A stretch of DNA of 52,506 bases from a virus, in the UHGV virus genome UHGV-0041832, one strand, 5' to 3'. Of this stretch, positions 6,951 through 22,520 are shown piece after piece. Positions within the stretch are counted from its first letter, which is position 1, and the number at the start of each line of letters is the position of its first letter. Under the pieces are notes generated by a model. It did no database searches. It was given only the letters and a program-made list of their open reading frames with translations, and was not told the DNA's origin. The position numbers were made by a program, and so were the translations under genes.

Positions 6951-7874
6951 TTATTGACAGCAAACAATCTCTTTATATGTTTCTTCTACCATGTCGAATA
7001 CTTCCGGCCTGTAATAAAAAAATTCAGTGCTACCATCAAACTTAACAGGGAAGTTTATTTTATAGTCACTGAAAGCATCGTGCATTTTGCTTTCTATTTC
7101 CTGCATAATCTCAGTAGGCCCATTCCATGTTTTAACTACCTGTAAATCAGTCAGCCTTACACCTGCCTTACGAGCACTTTTAAATACTCTGTTCCTCCTT
7201 TCGTTCTCTTTTACGCTTACACCAATTTTCATTTGTGTAGGCACTTCAAGATCATCAACCATGATGTAAAGTTTTCCGTTGTAGTGTGATAAAAACCCGT
7301 ATTTAGCGCATTTCGGGCAACCGCGCCCGCTCTTAATGTCTCTAGGTTTAGCCGACCACTCATGATCACAAACCTTGCAGCGGCATAATACTTTTGTACT
7401 GTTATTAACTATTTCAACCAGCACTTCAATATCAGGATTAACCTTAGCAATAGCCGATATTTGTTCTTCATGCGATATTTTTTTGCCTTGCGCTCGTTTT
7501 AGCACCGCACATTTCTGGCAACCGCTCCCGATCTTAAGGCTTTTAGGTGTAGAATACCACTCATGATCACAAACCTTGCAGCGGCATAATACTTTTATTT
7601 TGTCGCCGGTAATTTCCCCAAGCACTTCAATATCAGGATTAACCTTAGCAATAGCCGATATTTGTTCTTCATGCGATAACTTCATATTCCCAGCGCATTT
7701 CTGGCAACCACGTCCATATTTAATATTGCTAGGTGTAGCCGACCATTCATGGTTACAAACTTTGCAGCGACATAATACTTTTGTACTGTTATTAACAATT
7801 TCCCCTAACACTTCAACATCAGGATTAACTTTCGCGATAGCTGCAACTTGTTCTTCATGTGTTAACTTGCGCAT
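6951..7874 (-). CDS. Three tandem CxxC..CxxC zinc-ribbon repeats fused to a T5orf172 (GIY-YIG-like) C-terminal domain
   Basis: 307 aa; three ~64-aa repeats (HEEQxxAIAKVNPDxEVLGEI...KVLCRCKVCxHEW...GxGCxKC); C-terminal GKLYIMVDD...KIGVS...FDGSTEFF resembles T5orf172. Confidence 0.6.
   Translation of the reverse strand: MRKLTHEEQVAAIAKVNPDVEVLGEIVNNSTKVLCRCKVCNHEWSATPSNIKYGRGCQKCAGNMKLSHEEQISAIAKVNPDIEVLGEITGDKIKVLCRCKVCDHEWYSTPKSLKIGSGCQKCAVLKRAQGKKISHEEQISAIAKVNPDIEVLVEIVNNSTKVLCRCKVCDHEWSAKPRDIKSGRGCPKCAKYGFLSHYNGKLYIMVDDLEVPTQMKIGVSVKENERRNRVFKSARKAGVRLTDLQVVKTWNGPTEIMQEIESKMHDAFSDYKINFPVKFDGSTEFFYYRPEVFDMVEETYKEIVCCQ
7310..7874. repeat. Three direct ~195-bp tandem repeats inside the zinc-ribbon gene
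   Basis: Near-identical DNA segments (e.g. agcacttcaatatcaggattaaccttagcaatagccgatatttgttcttcatgcgata at 7425-7482 and 7624-7681); also evident as duplicated alt-frame ORFs 7375..7566 and 7576..7890. Confidence 0.85.
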
Positions 7875-8249: not shown

Positions 8250-9302
8250 TCAAAGAACGCCAGCGCGCGTATCACGTAGCGTTTTTGGTTTAAGCAGGAA
8301 ATCAAGTGTCGCGGTGAAGCCATCGCCGAAGTAAAAATCTGAAGCCGTGTTTTTGAACGTTTCGAAGTAGGCGACAAAGCCGTTAATGCTTTTGTCTTTC
8401 AGGTAGTCAGTGAACGCATAGATCTTGCGTTCAAGATCCCGATCCAGTTCGGCAGGTGGTAACAGGCCGTCAAACGTGCTGTTAAATGCTTCCACCACGT
8501 CGGCAGCGTTTACAGTGGCTGACAGTTTGCGCCATTGTTCAGCATCAGTCAGATACCCATCAAATTTAGTTACCCGGCAAATGTTGATAGGCTTAGGTAC
8601 TCCACCACGGCTACGCCATTGGGTTAAAGCCCACTCAATTACTAACGTGATCTCATTCTCCGTATACGCTTTACGTGTTTTTGTTTCTGTCAGTAGTTCT
8701 ACGAATGGCTTAGCATCACGACATTTGCATCCTGCCTTGTCGTTGTAGAAGGCAAGGCAACGCAATGCCGCTTCGTTTACGCCATCCTGATTGACCATTT
8801 TTTGTTCATTTTCGACAATACACGAAGTGTATATATCTTTTTCTCTTTCTTTTTCTACTTCTAATTCTAATTCATGACCCTTTCCTGACCCGGTCATGAC
8901 CCTATCATGACCTTTTTGTGTTGGATTGATTAACTTTTCTAATTTTAATTGCTCCTTCGCTGTGTTTATGGCGGCCCTGTAAGCGCTTTTAGAAGTCATT
9001 GATTGGTCCAGCCTTTTCAATAACTTTAAACAAGTTATGTGGCCTTGAGAACATTCAAACAAACCAATTTCGATGAAGTATTTCATCATTTCTTCTATAC
9101 GTTTTTCAGTAGATCCGACGTTTCGCGCAATGATTCTCGCGTCATGTCGTAGGTCAAAATTCAGATTGTGCTGATCTACGTCATAAGTTATTAGTTCGAG
9201 GCAATACCAATAAAGCCCGTACCCTTCCAGGCCATAATCTAACAAAACGTTTTGAAGTTTTTCATCGCGGTTCGCATCGCTGTCATGCTTAAACCACTTC
9301 AT
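8250..9302 (-). CDS. Replication initiation / replisome organizer-like protein
   Basis: 350 aa; N-terminal MKWFKHDSDANRDEKL...YGLEGYGLYWYCLELI matches phage replisome-organizer N-terminal domain pattern; sits upstream of DnaB in the PR-type operon. Confidence 0.72.
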   Translation of the reverse strand: MKWFKHDSDANRDEKLQNVLLDYGLEGYGLYWYCLELITYDVDQHNLNFDLRHDARIIARNVGSTEKRIEEMMKYFIEIGLFECSQGHITCLKLLKRLDQSMTSKSAYRAAINTAKEQLKLEKLINPTQKGHDRVMTGSGKGHELELEVEKEREKDIYTSCIVENEQKMVNQDGVNEAALRCLAFYNDKAGCKCRDAKPFVELLTETKTRKAYTENEITLVIEWALTQWRSRGGVPKPINICRVTKFDGYLTDAEQWRKLSATVNAADVVEAFNSTFDGLLPPAELDRDLERKIYAFTDYLKDKSINGFVAYFETFKNTASDFYFGDGFTATLDFLLKPKTLRDTRAGVL

Positions 9303-9305
9303 AGA

Positions 9306-9641
9306 TCATCCCTCCGGCAACATCACTACATAGACATCACTGAATGCATCAAGACGACAAACAAATCCTTTATCCATTAACGCGGCGAAGGCATCATGTA
9401 CCGTATGAACAGGAAGTTCACACATTGCGGCTACTTCTTTGCGTGATGCATCATGTACCCGTCCTTTGTTATCTGCCTTTTCAGCCAGAGCCATTAAGAC
9501 AAGTTTTTGAATCGGGCTATTAAGTTTTACGTTCCATGCTTTACTAATCATGTTCATACTCATCGCATTTTCTCCTATGGTTAGAGTGAACGCGCGGGCG
9601 GGCATCCCATTAGCATTAGATAGCAGTGACTGACCGCTCAA
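9306..9641 (-). CDS. HTH DNA-binding protein (HTH_36-like), first gene of leftward early operon
   Basis: KLVLMALAEKADNKGRV...SRKEVAAMCELPVHTVHDAFAALMDKGFV winged-helix pattern. The track start is a TTG; a downstream ATG (MPARAF or MSMNMISKAW) is more likely. No separate Cro-sized ORF was found. Confidence 0.55.
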   Translation of the reverse strand: MSGQSLLSNANGMPARAFTLTIGENAMSMNMISKAWNVKLNSPIQKLVLMALAEKADNKGRVHDASRKEVAAMCELPVHTVHDAFAALMDKGFVCRLDAFSDVYVVMLPEG

Positions 9642-9868
9642 CAGATCCCGCCGTTGCGTGATATTTGTTTTTCGCTTCGCAGCGACACCGGATTTTTAAA
9701 GAGCATAAGGTAAGTGCCTTTTTGTGCCTTCAGTTATCTTTTTCCTTGCGTCTTTGCAAGTATGGCCTTACCTTGTCTGCAAGTTTACAAAATGGAATTT
9801 TAAGATCAAGGCTTAAAATACACGTTTTGTGACTTGCATCAAACTTTTTGAGGTTATAGGGTAGCGAC
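9642..9868. promoter_or_regulatory. Immunity region with divergent early promoters (PR-like leftward, PRM-like rightward)
   Basis: 227-bp gap between divergent HTH gene and cI; candidate -35/-10 pairs on both strands; TTGCAT-N15-TATAGG ending ~7 nt before the cI ATG suggests a near-leaderless cI transcript; contains one copy of the dispersed motif (9784-9796). Confidence 0.5.
9681..9713 (-). promoter_or_regulatory. Candidate nutR-like site (boxA + boxB hairpin) on minus strand
   Basis: Minus-strand GCTCTTTAAAAAT (boxA consensus CGCTCTTTAA) followed 6 nt later by UCGCU-GCGA-AGCGA hairpin with GNRA loop. Confidence 0.4.
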
Positions 9869-10516
9869 ATGAAAACAAAATGGTATGACTTAGCAAAGCA
9901 GCTCATGCGGGCGCAGGGCATGAGCCAGGATTCACTCGCGGATCGTATGGGGATAACTAAAGGCGGCCTGTCACACTGGCTGAACGGTCGCCGAGAGCCA
10001 AATCTTGAAGATATTGCGCGGATTATGCGCGAGCTTGGTCGTCGGCAGTTTACTGTTACACATGATGGCATGGTCATTGATGATTCTGTTTCTAATACAC
10101 TTCAGGCCGTGCCGCCGCGTGATTTAGGTAGTTACCCGGTTATTGACTGGAAGGACACAGTAAACAATATGGATGACGCAAGGCGTTCAGCATTACGACA
10201 CGTTACGACTAGCGTTATTTGTTCAGATGACAGTTACTGGCTGGTTGCCAAAGGTGAATCAATGAACGCGCCGCAGGGGTTGAGCATCCCGGCGGGGACG
10301 ATGATACTTGTGGACCCGCACGCGCCAGCTATTGACGGCAAACTGGTTATAGCCCAGCTTGAGGAAGGGCAGATACCGACGTTTAAACAGTTGATTATTG
10401 ATGGAGGTCAAAGGCTTTTACGTTCGCTCAATCCGCTGTATCCGCCAATCCCTATGAATCCAGAATCAAAAATTATAGGCGTGGTGGTTGATGCGAAGAT
10501 CGTAAACCTGCCATAA
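9869..10516 (+). CDS. cI: CI-type prophage repressor (XRE HTH + LexA-like S24 peptidase domain)
   Basis: 215 aa; N-terminal HTH (SQDSLADRMGITKGGLSHWLNGRREP); C-terminal S24 fold with GESMNAP (Ser) and downstream Lys context. Confidence 0.9.
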   Translation: MKTKWYDLAKQLMRAQGMSQDSLADRMGITKGGLSHWLNGRREPNLEDIARIMRELGRRQFTVTHDGMVIDDSVSNTLQAVPPRDLGSYPVIDWKDTVNNMDDARRSALRHVTTSVICSDDSYWLVAKGESMNAPQGLSIPAGTMILVDPHAPAIDGKLVIAQLEEGQIPTFKQLIIDGGQRLLRSLNPLYPPIPMNPESKIIGVVVDAKIVNLP

Positions 10517-10523
10517 ACATTAG

Positions 10524-10545
10524 CCGCCGAATGGCGGCTTTTCTT
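10524..10545 (+). terminator. Rho-independent terminator after cI (truncated by N-run)
   Basis: GCCGCCGAATGGCGGC hairpin followed by TTTTCTT; sequence then enters a 106-nt N gap. Confidence 0.6.
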
Positions 10546-10753
10546 NNNNNNNNNNNNNNNNNNNNNNNNNNNNNNNNNNNNNNNNNNNNNNNNNNNNNNN
10601 NNNNNNNNNNNNNNNNNNNNNNNNNNNNNNNNNNNNNNNNNNNNNNNNNNNCTTTTCTTTGCCTGGAAAACACCAAAACGTAAACAGAAAACGTTATTTA
10701 TTATTTAAATATCAATGCCATATAAAATATTTTAAAAAAGTATACAAAATGGA

Positions 10754-10782
10754 TTGACTCGATGTTTTACGGGGCGTATATT
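10754..10782 (+). promoter_or_regulatory. PL-like sigma70 promoter
   Basis: TTGACT (10754-10759), 17-nt spacer, TATATT (10777-10782); dispersed motif copy immediately upstream (10741-10753). Confidence 0.55.
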
Positions 10783-11036
10783 GCGAGTCAAAGGAAGGGC
10801 GCAGGTAACAAAAGCAACTTCCTGGCACTTTAAAAATCAGGCTTAACACCTTGTCAACCGTGGAGTAACTCCCCGATGGGGGACCGAAAGCGGCACTGAT
10901 AACAAGGCGCATGGGGTGTTTAAAGCGTTACATCCCCCACGAAACCGCACGCAAGGCGACGAGTCAGCTTGCTTGGAGTGAGCAAGGTCACGCCGGGAAC
11001 GGCGATGATTGCGGGATTAGTTGAAAGATGTTAAGC

Positions 11037-11074
11037 CGCTCATTAACAATCTGGTCAGCCGCTGGAAGTGCGGC
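11037..11074 (+). promoter_or_regulatory. Candidate nutL-like site (boxA + hairpin)
   Basis: CGCTCATTAACAA (one mismatch to boxA) then 8 nt then GCCGC-UGGAAGU-GCGGC hairpin, upstream of the arginine-rich protein gene. Confidence 0.4.
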
Positions 11075-11130
11075 AATTAACGAAGATGATTTTTTATTAA
11101 GTATCATCAAGGATATACGGAGATCAGATT

Positions 11131-11421
11131 ATGAGCGTTACAATTATATATGGTAAATGTGATAGCAAAATGAATGCCAGGGAACGCAGAAGGATAAAAA
11201 GAGAAAACGAAAGAAAATCATCACCTGCAATCAATAAAACAGACAATGTGGATAAAGCTATTCGATTTGCAAACGAGGAAAGATGCAAACCAAATAGCAT
11301 TAAAGAACGTCGCAAAGGATCAGTAAAATGGTATACGGAAAATGAAAGCGGCAGCTACTACCACGCAACGCAACCACGCCATTTAGGGGAAAAACCCCTG
11401 GATAAAGTCCGCTACCATTAA
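11131..11421 (+). CDS. N-like antitermination protein candidate (arginine-rich motif)
   Basis: Basic 96-aa ORF; internal Met at 11170 begins MNARERRRIKRENERK, resembling the N-protein arginine-rich RNA-binding motif; position after PL-like promoter and nut-like site. Confidence 0.5.
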   Translation: MSVTIIYGKCDSKMNARERRRIKRENERKSSPAINKTDNVDKAIRFANEERCKPNSIKERRKGSVKWYTENESGSYYHATQPRHLGEKPLDKVRYH

Positions 11422-11567
11422 TACAAAATGTAAACATCCGGGGATGACATTATGGTTATTCAGGCGCTTCAATTCAAACTGGCAGTAGCGGAAATGCTTC
11501 ACGATGCCGAAATGTGGAGCGCCGCGAATAAAGCCTTATACATAGTGTTAACAGCACGGGAGATTAA

Positions 11568-12212
11568 ATGGTGAAAACAGAGTTACATAAAAAGCTATGG
11601 ACGATTCAGCAAACGCTGAACGCGCCGAAAAATCAGCGTAATAATTTTGGTGGATATAATTACAGGTCGGCGGAGGATATTTTAGAGGCGGTTAAACCAC
11701 TGCTTCAAAGTATTACGCTGACTGTAAGCGATGAAATTGTCCTGATCGGCAATCGCTATTATGTGAAAGCTACGGCGACGCTAAGCGACGGTGAAGACGA
11801 AATAGCGGTAACGGCTTACGCCAGGGAAGAAGAAAGCAAGAAGGGAATGGACGCAAGCCAGCTAACAGGTGCGACATCAAGTTACGCGCGAAAATATGCT
11901 TTGAACGGTTTATTCTGCATTGATGATGCGCGAGATCCTGATACTGACGCATACGCTAAGCAGACAGGCCAGCAGCCTCGCCAGCAGAAAAACCCACCAA
12001 AACAACAACCACAGCAGCAGAAAGCGCCGCCAAATCCTGATGAAGTATTAGCACGTTTCTGTGATGCAGCAGCGAAAGCGCAGGACGCTAACAAGCTGCG
12101 TGAAATATTTGGCAAATGCTGGAAATTACTACCGGAAGGATCGGAACATCGAATCAAGGCAAAAGATGTTTATGACATCCGGGTAGCAGAGCTTAACGGG
12201 GAGATGGGTTAA
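11568..12212 (+). CDS. erf: Erf-family single-strand annealing recombinase
   Basis: Strong resemblance from memory to P22 Erf (LNAPKNQ...YRSAEDILEAVKPLL...SDEIVLIGNRYYVKATATLSDGE...AREEESKKGMDASQLTGATSSYARKYALNGLF). Confidence 0.92.
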   Translation: MVKTELHKKLWTIQQTLNAPKNQRNNFGGYNYRSAEDILEAVKPLLQSITLTVSDEIVLIGNRYYVKATATLSDGEDEIAVTAYAREEESKKGMDASQLTGATSSYARKYALNGLFCIDDARDPDTDAYAKQTGQQPRQQKNPPKQQPQQQKAPPNPDEVLARFCDAAAKAQDANKLREIFGKCWKLLPEGSEHRIKAKDVYDIRVAELNGEMG

Positions 12213-13147: not shown

Positions 13148-13257
13148 GCTTTGCAAAAATTGCCGCATTGCTTGCGGCTTTATCTATCGCCGTGCTGTAT
13201 CTCAGTGTATCTCTTTATATCACGGTAGCGATCATTAAACTCATTACTAACATGTGA
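13144..13257 (+). CDS. Small hydrophobic membrane peptide (37 aa)
   Basis: Hand-translated MSFAKIAALLAALSIAVLYLSVSLYITVAIIKLITNM; ATGA overlap with upstream stop. Confidence 0.35.
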   Translation: MSFAKIAALLAALSIAVLYLSVSLYITVAIIKLITNM

Positions 13258-15403: not shown

Positions 15404-15596
15404 ACGCTATAAAGAGTGGAAAATCCCAGAAGCAGCAACAAAGGCAGCGCCCGGAAACTTTTCGGGCGTTTACTTTTATATGGAAGGCAAATGGTATTTC
15501 GGCAGCAGGCCTGATCACTATTATCAGGAAATATGCAAACCTCATGTATGGGATATAAAAGAGCGGGTGAAAGACGGTGTAATAGACGAGGTTTAA
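15393..15596 (+). CDS. Hypothetical protein
   Basis: 67 aa ORF. Confidence 0.4.
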   Translation: MKYKRYKEWKIPEAATKAAPGNFSGVYFYMEGKWYFGSRPDHYYQEICKPHVWDIKERVKDGVIDEV

Positions 15597-15597
15597 A

Positions 15598-15819
15598 ATG
15601 GTTAAGAGCTTTTTAAACTGGTTAAAGGCGTGGCTTTTGGTTACGCTTTTTGTTTTTTTGGTGTTCAGTGGCGCTATCGTCATATTTACGCTGGGTATGA
15701 TTTTTGTTACATGGTCAGTACCTGAATTTAACGACATTGAAAGCATTCTTTTTACTGTACGCGCTTTATTGGCTGGTAGCGCATTCATCGGTTTTTGCTT
15801 TACTGTTTCGCGTGATTAG
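15598..15819 (+). CDS. Small two-helix membrane protein
   Basis: 73 aa with two hydrophobic segments. Confidence 0.45.
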   Translation: MVKSFLNWLKAWLLVTLFVFLVFSGAIVIFTLGMIFVTWSVPEFNDIESILFTVRALLAGSAFIGFCFTVSRD

Positions 15820-18253: not shown

Positions 18254-18522
18254 CTTCAAGCAAACAAAATGCTCTTTAAAAATCCGGCAGCGCTGAAATG
18301 CGTAGAAATCACCTGAAAAGGAGAGAGCATTATGTCTTTTGATGATTACCAATGGCATGACGACTATGAACGAGAAAGCGTTATGCGTGCAATGTGCAAT
18401 GTATGCAGCACGAAGAAAGGAGGCTGTAACGAGTGCAACGAATGCTTAGAACATTGGCTAAGGGCCGGACACGCCGAAAGGCTGAACGAAACAGAGAATC
18501 AAAAATAATCGGGGTGGTTTTT

Positions 18523-19128
18523 ATGCAAAACCCTAAAAAACCCATAAGACGCCGTTGCAAATGCTGCGGCGTTTTTTTTGAGCCTAAATATCACAATCAA
18601 ACGTGGTGCAGCGATGAATGTCTGGAAGAACTGAAGTTTGACCAGCTATGCCGCGACCGTGAGAAGGCTATGAAGGCTATGGAGCGGAAGAAACGCCGTG
18701 ATAGCCAGAGGGAAGAACGCAACCGGAAGCGTAAACAGTTAAATCCGCGTAGTTATTGGATCAAACAAGTTCAAAATGTATTTAACGCCTATATTCGCGA
18801 ACGTGACGCGCGCTTGCCGTGTATATCTTGCGGGACTTACTACGGTGAGCAATGCGGGTGGGATGCAGGTCATTACAGGACGGTAGCCGCCGCCGGACAC
18901 CTTCGCTTCAACGAGGATAATTGCCATAAGCAATGTAGGCACTGCAACCAGACACTAGACGGCAACATCGGAGGGTATCGCCCGGCGCTGATTCGAAAAA
19001 TTGGCCTCGCCAGGGTGGTAGCTCTGGAGAACAACAACGATACGCATAAATGGACGATTGCAGAATGTAAGGAGCTAATAAACATCTATCAGGCGAAATT
19101 GGACGCCTTAAGGAGAAAGGCAGCATGA
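18523..19128 (+). CDS. ninG: NinG (Rap) recombination protein
   Basis: Strong match from memory to lambda NinG (RRRCKxxxCxxxFxP...PRSYWIKQxQ...IRERDxxLPCISCGT...WDAGHYRTxAAAxxLRFNExNxHKQC...HRWTIxECK). ORF track starts at 18433; the ATG at 18523 fits the homologue. Confidence 0.88.
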   Translation: MQNPKKPIRRRCKCCGVFFEPKYHNQTWCSDECLEELKFDQLCRDREKAMKAMERKKRRDSQREERNRKRKQLNPRSYWIKQVQNVFNAYIRERDARLPCISCGTYYGEQCGWDAGHYRTVAAAGHLRFNEDNCHKQCRHCNQTLDGNIGGYRPALIRKIGLARVVALENNNDTHKWTIAECKELINIYQAKLDALRRKAA

Positions 19129-19532
19129 ATGAATATTCTTTTAGCCTGCCTTACCCGCCATCGAATAATCGCTATTACCGACATTCGCGCGGTTTTCACT
19201 ATATCAGCAAAGTGGGGAAGGAATACAGGGAACAAGTAAGAGACATCATCGAGCTATTAAATTTAAATATTAACCTACCTTGCCGACTGGCAATTGCCAT
19301 TTACGCCGCGCCGCCGGATAACCGGATCAGAGATCTGGATAATATCCCTAAATGCCTTTTTGACAGCCTTACTTATGCCGGATTCTGGAGGGATGACGGG
19401 CAAATTGACTCAATAAAAATTGTCCGCTGCCGGAAGGTAAAAGGCGGACGCTTGTTTATTAAGATCCGCGAACGCGGCGACCTACTACCGGATATTGACG
19501 AATACGCGACTAATATGTGGGGTGAGCAATGA
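19125..19532 (+). CDS. rusA: RusA Holliday junction resolvase
   Basis: 135 aa; RusA-like pattern including DLDNIPKCLFDSL. Confidence 0.8.
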   Translation: MNEYSFSLPYPPSNNRYYRHSRGFHYISKVGKEYREQVRDIIELLNLNINLPCRLAIAIYAAPPDNRIRDLDNIPKCLFDSLTYAGFWRDDGQIDSIKIVRCRKVKGGRLFIKIRERGDLLPDIDEYATNMWGEQ

Positions 19533-19711
19533 AAAACGAAGTTAAAGATCTGCAAATAGATATTCAGCGCGACGAGCGTGATTTAGAGACGGTCCGACAA
19601 ATCCAGGCTTTCCACATGCGCGAATTACTTGCGCTGAAAGAGTTCGAAAGAAAGCTGGTGCAATCCATTTCTGATCGTAAACGGCTGGCGGCGCGTTATG
19701 AGGGCAAATAA
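19529..19711 (+). CDS. Hypothetical small coiled-coil protein
   Basis: 60 aa ORF, coupled. Confidence 0.4.
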   Translation: MKNEVKDLQIDIQRDERDLETVRQIQAFHMRELLALKEFERKLVQSISDRKRLAARYEGK

Positions 19712-20439
19712 TGAATTTAGAATCCATTCTAAAATTCCACTTTCCTAAATCACCGCGATTATCTGACGAAAGCCGGGGCACGTCCCCGGACGCTCTTAAT
19801 ACGACGGATGCGCTAACCGCTGCGGGTATGGCGCAATCGCGCGTAGAGCTTGGATATGGCGCTTTTTTAGGGAAGATGGAACTATCACAAGCCGAAAAAC
19901 ATAGGGCCGTAGTTTTGCTTACAGAGCGTTTAAGGGCTATGGCGAAAGATTACGAATACGTGATGGAGTTAAACGAGGATCAGCGCAATGGACTTATTAT
20001 TCTTGTTGCCGTTTTCGCGTTTCGGGATTATTGCCAGAGTGCGGCGACCGAAAAAGTTTGCCCTAAGTGCGGCGGCCACGGGCATTTACCAAATCCATAT
20101 TGCAAATACACATCGACAATTTGTTCGCGGTGCAACGGCAAAGGCTACGTTAAAAACCATTGCCAACGTTGCAAGGGGCGCGGAGAAGTACCGGATAAAG
20201 CAGCCAGTGAAGCGGCGGAAATGCCAGTATTCAAAACGTGCCAGCATTGCGGCGGGCGCGGGTACTCGCGTTTCCCGGTAGATCTCGTCCGGCAGGCCGT
20301 TAACCAGCTTGTTTTCCCGGTAAGCAGATCAACATGGTGGAAGAAATACCGGGTTTTCTATGAAGACGCCATAGCGGAGCTATTCAAAGAAGAGGCCCGC
20401 GCGGAAAGCGAAATTAAACGAGTGACACGGGGTGAATAA
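19711..20439 (+). CDS. Q-like late antiterminator candidate (zinc-finger rich)
   Basis: 242 aa starting MNLESI..., multiple CxxC pairs (CPKCGGHG, CSRCNGKG, CQRCKGRG, CQHCGGRG); position after NinG/RusA as for Q in lambdoid phages. Family assignment from memory, not verified. Confidence 0.55.
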   Translation: MNLESILKFHFPKSPRLSDESRGTSPDALNTTDALTAAGMAQSRVELGYGAFLGKMELSQAEKHRAVVLLTERLRAMAKDYEYVMELNEDQRNGLIILVAVFAFRDYCQSAATEKVCPKCGGHGHLPNPYCKYTSTICSRCNGKGYVKNHCQRCKGRGEVPDKAASEAAEMPVFKTCQHCGGRGYSRFPVDLVRQAVNQLVFPVSRSTWWKKYRVFYEDAIAELFKEEARAESEIKRVTRGE

Positions 20440-22286: not shown

Positions 22287-22520
22287 ATGTGTATCTATGA
22301 ACACAAGCGGGATAAAACCCGCTTTTTTGTTCGTGCTGGCGTGGCTTACCAGTATCACGACTGCGGATATATCGAGGCGCTTGCTTACGATCTGGACTTC
22401 GAACAAGAAAAAGAATGGTTCGATTTCAAAATTTACCGGAAGCGTAAACCGACGCGCGACGAGCGACACGCTATCCGGGACTTTTTAATCAGCATAGACC
22501 GCTGGGAGACAGAGGAATGA
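22287..22520 (+). CDS. Hypothetical protein
   Basis: 77 aa ORF. Confidence 0.4.
   Translation: MCIYEHKRDKTRFFVRAGVAYQYHDCGYIEALAYDLDFEQEKEWFDFKIYRKRKPTRDERHAIRDFLISIDRWETEE

Follow-up and report, generated by a model that had tools for sequence, protein, structure and literature searches.

In lambda, the C-terminal region of the N protein, with its WY motif, binds RNA polymerase; the nutL site is made of boxA CGCTCTTA, 8 nucleotides, and the boxB hairpin GCCCU-GAAGA-AGGGC, the lambda boxB loop being GAAGA or GAAAA. P22 nutL has boxA CGCTCTTTAAC, a 9-nucleotide spacer and boxB GCGCU-GACAA-AGCGC, and each of these phages has two nut sites. For the temperate coliphage mEp021, Gp17 is presented as an N-lambda-like early antiterminator in PMC11893012, which cites Valencia-Toxqui et al. 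2023 (Arch Virol 168:92). According to section 3.5 of PMC11893012, arginines 17, 19, 20 and 24 of Gp17 are fully conserved and the protein has three targets: nutL and nutR1, which lie upstream of the repressor gene and of gp17, respectively, and nutR2, which lies downstream of gp32. The mEpimmI phages are described there as Nus-dependent, as a group, and as non-lambdoid.

The DNA analyzed here (the window, all 52,506 nucleotides of virus genome UHGV-0041832) is that of an mEpimmI-group, mEp021-like temperate coliphage. Seven phage records match a 948-base region around the module. DNA identity to four of them is 92-99%, MagusPhagus being the closest (99.4%), followed by mEp010 (95.9%), mEp515 (94.1%) and mEp021 (92.5%); mEp013, mEp044 and mEp554 match the 948 bases at 79% coverage. 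Single prophages matching the same region are present in 35 of 5,426 complete E. coli genomes. On the + strand the order is repressor, terminator, promoter, nut, N-like gene, kil-like gene, erf and ssb, which parallels both lambda and P22; the first genes of the divergent operon, on the - strand, encode an HTH protein and a protein of replication. This neighbourhood is the same as in mEp021, and the gp17 ortholog is the first gene of an early operon beside the immunity region, with candidate terminators downstream. The features that frame the module are:

9869..10516, + strand: cI-type repressor gene, ortholog of mEp021 gp15/Rep021 (HTH plus S24 peptidase)
10522..10539, + strand: intrinsic terminator 3' of the repressor gene (7-bp GC-rich stem, then a T run)
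10754..10782, + strand: early sigma-70 promoter, TTGACT-N17-TATATT (10/12 consensus positions)
11131..11421, + strand: gp17 ortholog, a 96-aa N-like antiterminator ORF (PHROG 271, mEp021 orthology)

The repressor assignment (Pfam Peptidase_S24, 5.8e-19; HTH_3, 1.5e-12) agrees with the mEp021 annotation, in which the repressor-gene terminator appears as TERM_1. As in lambda, a repressor gene, an early promoter, a nut site and an N gene are followed by kil and recombination genes. Directly after the gp17 ortholog, a 40-aa ORF (11452-11574, + strand) is weakly similar to lambda Kil (Pfam Lambda_Kil E 2.2e-4, below threshold; PHROG 2055 E 1.4e-3), and because of it the gene order comes closer to that of the lambda pL operon. 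Between the terminator and the promoter lies a run of 106 N (10547-10652), with the octamer CTTTTCTT duplicated on both flanks. In an E. coli prophage that is 100% identical (L003) and in mEp021 (L001), the terminator directly joins 'CTTTTCTTTGCC'. Given that relatives are contiguous here and that the flanks repeat CTTTTCTT, we rejected the idea that the run conceals a feature and regard it as an assembly gap, either a scaffolding or a circular-join artefact. Elsewhere in the window, a 307-aa protein (6951-7874, - strand) has three tandem repeats of about 60 aa, each with CxxC...CxxC zinc-ribbon motifs, in the pattern HEEQ..AIAKVNPD.EVLGEI...CRCKVC.HEW...GCQKC; its mEp021 counterpart is annotated only as a putative zinc-ribbon protein.

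Judged by sequence, the ORF at 11131-11421 is an ortholog of Gp17: it is the counterpart of mEp021_17, also in its length of 96 aa, with 92.7% amino-acid identity to Gp17, and contains ...KMNARERRRIKRENERK...; the mEp021 literature reports Gp17-dependent early antitermination, and Nus dependence for the phage group. It matches PHROG 271, 'anti-termination protein N-like', over residues 1-95 (E 1.3e-13), and P22 gp24 (from BK000583; 6.9e-40) and lambda N (4.1e-23) fall in the same PHROG. Against the Pfam family PF25694 (N_peptide) the ORF scores 15.9 bits, under the cutoff of 27.9, while the PHROG 271 match is full-length; 14 of 16 family members match PF25694 below threshold, the best at 4.8e-4. 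Pairwise similarity is slight. The BLASTP match to P22 gp24 is short and weak (MSVTIIYGKCDSKMNARERR against MTV-ITYGKSTFAGNAKTRR, E 0.017), and a forced alignment gives 34% identity, the two proteins being otherwise barely alignable. Compared by tblastn with 50,697 phage records, the ORF matched the seven mEpimmI phages alone and not the N gene of any lambdoid phage. No solved N peptide was retrieved from PDB sequences with phmmer, and scanning the GTDB species representatives with a protein pattern yielded no relative. The family is narrow: we found 31 homologs, the most distant at about 60% identity, and every one came from E. coli or a gut sample.

An earlier note, made from the sequence alone, had pointed to a basic ORF here resembling the arginine-rich motif of N proteins, and the alignments with P22 and lambda, together with PHROG 271, bear this out. 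The motif, at about residues 14-29 (MNARERRRIKRENERK, encoded at 11170-11217), aligns with those of P22 gp24 and lambda N. Three of its arginines, R17, R20 and R24, never vary among 16 homologs, and conservation of R19 and R21 is at least 90%. In multiple alignments, the segments matching P22 gp24 and/or lambda N are the arginine-rich motif, D-x-V-x-K-A-I and the C-terminal WY. The likeness to P22 gp24 lies in the N-terminus, MxVxIxYGK...NA[KR]xRR, where both proteins start MxV(x)IxYGK and carry the NA[KR]xRR motif at about residues 14-30. With lambda N it is the V-x-x-A and WY motifs, the latter C-terminal, that align along with the arginine-rich motif. The conserved C-terminal half of Gp17 (WYxENESG...LGEKPLDKVRYH) has no counterpart in P22.

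The earlier note had placed the start of the arginine-rich protein at an internal methionine. Such a start is not needed, as the gene begins at the upstream ATG at 11131, with a GGAG Shine-Dalgarno 8-11 nucleotides before it. Counted from this ATG, the arginines of the ORF fall exactly at 17, 19, 20, 21 and 24, and since the published arginine numbering fits, the published start must be the upstream ATG rather than the internal Met. A start at Met14 was rejected: it has no Shine-Dalgarno, conservation and the likeness to P22 gp24 extend over residues 1-13, and the published numbering disagrees.

Three sites in the window combine a 17-nucleotide boxA block with a short hairpin:

11037-11074, + strand: nutR1, 17-nt boxA block GCTCWTTAAMAATCYGG plus short hairpin
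11037..11049, + strand: nutR1 boxA, CGCTCATTAACAA (boxA pattern match)
11058..11074, + strand: nutR1 boxB hairpin, GCCGC-UGGAAGU-GCGGC (MFE hairpin)
9705-9672, - strand: nutL, 17-nt boxA block GCTCWTTAAMAATCYGG plus short hairpin
9693..9705, - strand: nutL boxA, TGCTCTTTAAAAA (boxA pattern match)
9672..9685, - strand: nutL boxB hairpin, UCGC(U)-GCGA-(A)GCGA (hairpin fold; the U-A closing pair is optional)
18270-18303, + strand: nutR2, 17-nt boxA block GCTCWTTAAMAATCYGG plus short hairpin
18270..18282, + strand: nutR2 boxA, TGCTCTTTAAAAA (boxA pattern match; 7.2 kb downstream of nutR1)
18290..18303, + strand: nutR2 boxB hairpin, GCGC-UGAAAU-GCGU (hairpin fold)

In the 52.5 kb, YGCTCWTTAA occurs exactly only at 9705-9696 (- strand), 11037-11046 (+ strand) and 18270-18279 (+ strand). 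The 17-nucleotide block GCTCWTTAAMAATCYGG has three exact matches and one with two mismatches, against 0.11 expected, and a hairpin follows 2-4 nucleotides after each of the three exact blocks. These are the published nutL, nutR1 and nutR2, equated by position and description only: as described for mEp021, one site lies on the opposite strand upstream of the repressor, one upstream of gp17 and one about 7 kb downstream. A 47-nucleotide string spanning the nutR1 boxA and hairpin is identical in mEp021. The two phages differ only at the strain level: the DNA of the region is about 92.5% identical, and a single base is changed in the nutL boxA flank. The boxA and GCCGC/GCGGC hairpin reported in the earlier note are thus present at 11037-11074, where PMC11893012 places nutR1. 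So are the boxA and GNRA hairpin that it had seen on the opposite strand, at the published place of nutL; its range for them, 9681-9713, does not hold, because the hairpin occupies 9685-9672 and that range loses the 3' arm. The nutR2 site at 18270-18303 is additional to the two sites of that note.

To get a comparative perspective on the hairpins, we drew on 45 IMG/VR loci, 24 metagenome loci, several E. coli prophages and two divergent contigs, the latter with Gp17 homologs at 65-67% identity. At the nutR1 position, the boxA of short-leader relatives reads TGCTCTTTAACAA, TGCTCTTTAATAA or close variants, and the boxB hairpins are:

nutR1 boxB in the window and mEp021: GCCGC...GCGGC
nutR1 boxB in relatives L048 and L049: GCUAC-UGAAAU-GUAGC
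nutR1 boxB in relative L047: UGCAC-UGAAAU-GUGCA
nutR1 boxB in relative L057: GCAC-UGAAAA-GUGC
nutR1 boxB in relative L058: UCGC-UGAAAU-GCGA

The outer pair of the nutR2 boxB is G.U, A-U or C-G depending on the relative, and the nutL loop occurs as UGCGAA, UGUGAA and UGCAAU. A metagenome scan added no further nutR1 variants. In an alignment of 20 unique site variants, P22 nutL included, drawn from more than 100 related loci, standard pairs fill 97.7% of the boxB cells versus 82.2% in shuffles, and none of 500 shuffles reached the observed value. Both sides change in four of the five stem pairs across the 20 aligned rows, and every slid-register control collapses. All the loop variants are a U followed by a GNRA tetranucleotide (GCGA, GUGA, GCAA, GAAA or GGAA); loop length varies from 4 to 7 nucleotides according to whether the U-N pair closes, and the loops may adopt a GNRA-like fold. 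The earlier worry that the two candidate loops, UGGAAGU and GCGA, were unlike each other therefore falls away: UGGAAGU contains GGAA, the nutL loop is GCGA, or UGCGAA with its closing U-A, and both reconcile as U-GNRA-N. The boxA-spacer-boxB arrangement is that of P22 nutL, but the loops differ. P22 has a GACAA pentaloop and lambda likewise a 5-nucleotide loop, whereas those of the window are U-GNRA-N, either 6-7 nucleotides long or a GNRA tetraloop closed by U-N. The sequence and these comparisons show the anatomy of the module, its N homology, the boxB covariation and the conservation of the three sites.

Single boxB hairpins are thermodynamically unremarkable (z = -0.3 to -0.8; those of lambda and P22 are only modestly better, at -2.0 and -1.5), so the support for boxB is comparative, and the 10-nucleotide boxA pattern, when one mismatch is allowed, is about as frequent as chance predicts (20 matches versus 17 expected). 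Both facts would suit a small basic ORF and random GC hairpins that merely happen to lie near A/T-rich boxA-like strings, with no functional link among them. The excess of the 17-nucleotide block over expectation and the compensatory stem changes at homologous positions refute such a coincidence, and the ORF is moreover conserved, with invariant arginines and a PHROG 271 match, leaving this explanation with next to no probability. A Nun-like exclusion factor, as in HK022, would bind the boxB of competitors and terminate rather than antiterminate the phage's own transcripts. An arginine-rich motif at the same genomic position as Nun in HK022 agrees with that idea, and the D-x-V-D-K-A motif of the Gp17 ortholog may resemble Nun. 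HK022 Nun-type factors, however, act from a genome that has no cognate nut sites and uses put RNAs instead, whereas the phage studied here owns three cognate, conserved nut sites with covarying boxB stems, and Rfam identified no put-like RNA. With the ortholog in mEp021 reported in PMC11893012 to antiterminate, we consider a Nun-like role very improbable.

The module is very likely a processive antitermination system of the lambda N type belonging to an mEpimmI temperate coliphage. PHROG 271, the orthology to Gp17, the three nut sites and the covarying boxB all support the N/nut-type reading that the earlier note had offered; it had named the lack of a covarying boxB hairpin, and of N similarity in the ORF, as grounds for giving the reading up, and both the covariation and the PHROG 271 match were found.

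The promoter TTGACT-N17-TATATT, also noticed earlier, is borne out by its 10/12 consensus positions and its retention in relatives. Its hexamers are identical in the relatives examined, divergent ones included, apart from L057, which has TTGACA-N17-TATAGT. It is the predicted promoter of the gp17 operon; it had been labelled PL-like, but the published nomenclature names this operon rightward, with nutR1, and not PL. Abutting the -35 hexamer is a repeat:

10738..10753, + strand: operator-like repeat AAGTATACAAAATGGA (repeat family; abuts the -35 hexamer)

A repeat search found related copies at 9781-9796 and, inverted, at 9812-9838, in the intergenic region between the repressor gene and nutL. 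The motif AAGT(T/A)TACAAAATGG is repeated, with an inverted related copy, beside both early promoter regions, and the repeats at 9781-9796, 9812-9838 and 10738-10753 are candidate operators of the Rep021-type repressor.

The leader, counted from the -10 hexamer up to the ATG at 11131, measures about 348 nucleotides and folds far better than shuffled sequences (z = -4.26; 0/100 shuffles as good). The several hairpins that had been noted in it are confirmed, though the leader is not uniform across the group. Long-leader members carry an additional segment:

10825-11037, + strand: structured leader segment of about 212 nt ('long-leader' members only; no Rfam match)
10825..10841, + strand: extra boxA-like 17-mer GCACTTTAAAAATCAGG (the fourth block match, with 2 mismatches; no boxB hairpin after it)

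The nutR1 boxA lies about 252 nucleotides past the -10 hexamer in the long form (the window, mEp021, mEp010, mEp515, MagusPhagus, L048 and L049) and about 40 nucleotides past it in the short form (mEp013, L037-L041, L047, L057 and L058); matches of mEp044 and mEp554 to the leader show the same gap of about 200 nucleotides. A 9-bp helix, GGCTTAACA/TGTTAAGCC, closes its structured part (10840..11037, + strand). Conservation is higher in the segment than in the flanking sequence, and even L048 and L049, whose gp17 is about 70% identical, have it nearly unchanged. RNAalifold predicts 58 pairs, nearly all of them invariant; in the hairpin at 10968-10986 three pairs have compensatory changes, and there is a wobble change as well. 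Scanning 9300-11700 and 10780-11135 against Rfam, at E values up to 10, returned chance-level matches only, and ARAGORN detected neither a tRNA nor a tmRNA in the leader. In a relaxed blastn search of phages, the segment matched outside mEpimmI only as chance-level fragments. A 20-mer from it matched only mEpimmI viral contigs and three unrelated bacteria (Corynebacterium, Verrucomicrobiae and Sphingomonas), the bacterial matches being taken to be chance. The segment is present in 31 of 5,426 E. coli genomes at one copy each, thus disfavoring a MITE-like mobile element. In mEp021, a 37-aa gp16 is annotated inside it. We rejected gp16 as a real gene: in the aligned variants most substitutions alter the amino acid, some radically, and the RNA helix is preserved, which makes an RNA role likelier than a coding one.

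For the long-leader phages, one could propose that this 212-nucleotide RNA is itself the main device, independent of protein and put-like or riboswitch-like, controlling either elongation or gp17 translation. The segment is strongly structured, its conservation exceeds that of the flanks even in phages whose gp17 has dropped to about 70% identity, it opens with a boxA-like sequence, and one helix has compensatory changes. Yet it matches no known RNA family, its predicted pairs are nearly all invariant, so that the structure is weakly tested, and the sister phages mEp013, mEp044 and mEp554 do without it while keeping the promoter, nutR1 and gp17. The last point shows the segment to be dispensable for the core mechanism and leaves a protein-independent main device improbable. 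A more modest suggestion, which we offer tentatively and think somewhat doubtful, is that 10825-11037 is a previously undescribed cis-acting structured RNA that tunes Nus/Gp17 loading at nutR1 or gp17 expression; otherwise it would be a neutral scar left by recombination, or the small gene gp16. PMC11893012 contains no mention of the segment. The leader's MFE fold pairs the nutR1 boxA-spacer sequence AAUCUGGUC (11048-11056) with GAUCAGAUU (11121-11129), which sits between the Shine-Dalgarno and the gp17 start codon, and the complementarity is kept only in part in divergent relatives. The modeled pairing might couple nut occupancy to gp17 translation, comparable to lambda N, which autoregulates via nutL.

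Taking N-type antitermination as the working mechanism, the promoter at 10754 would fire when the repressor is absent. As the sequence shows, its transcript carries nutR1, with its boxA and then the short boxB hairpin, and next encodes the 96-aa Gp17 ortholog. Following lambda and P22, the arginine-rich N-terminus would bind the U-GNRA-N loop of boxB, and host NusB/NusE would bind boxA; this binding and the geometry of the complex are drawn by analogy only. The complex would then ride RNA polymerase through downstream terminators toward ninG, rusA and Q, and may be loaded anew or strengthened at nutR2, which lies 7.2 kb farther downstream. The nutL site would serve the divergent replication operon in like manner. 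Antitermination activity and its dependence on the arginine-rich motif are reported in the literature on the ortholog, and Nus dependence is reported group-wide. Candidate intrinsic terminators on the + strand downstream are found at 13162-13178, 15446-15470, 15624-15650 and 22305-22324. Farther along the same strand as the gp17 operon lies the late regulator:

19711..20439, + strand: Q-type late antiterminator gene (Pfam Antiterm PF03589, 4.8e-30)

Homologs of ninG, rusA and Q (18433-20439, + strand) come after nutR2, and the position of nutR2 just upstream of them would suit a site that helps polymerase to stay resistant to terminators until Q is expressed. The phage carries this lambda-like nin/Q block despite the description of its group as non-lambdoid.

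Compared with P22 and lambda, this phage has three nut sites instead of two, and its structured leader region lies upstream of nutR1, whereas that of lambda lies downstream of nutL. The module is real but already known, having been described experimentally in the near-identical phage mEp021. Processive antitermination of the N/nut type is thereby seen at work beyond the classical lambdoid phages, using three nut sites and a U-GNRA-N boxB loop; mEp021 and its group had already established this, and the window adds only another member. What the present analysis contributes are the window coordinates of the three nut sites, a formal test of boxB covariation, and the finding that the gp17 leader exists in two forms, one of them with a highly conserved structured RNA and an extra boxA.
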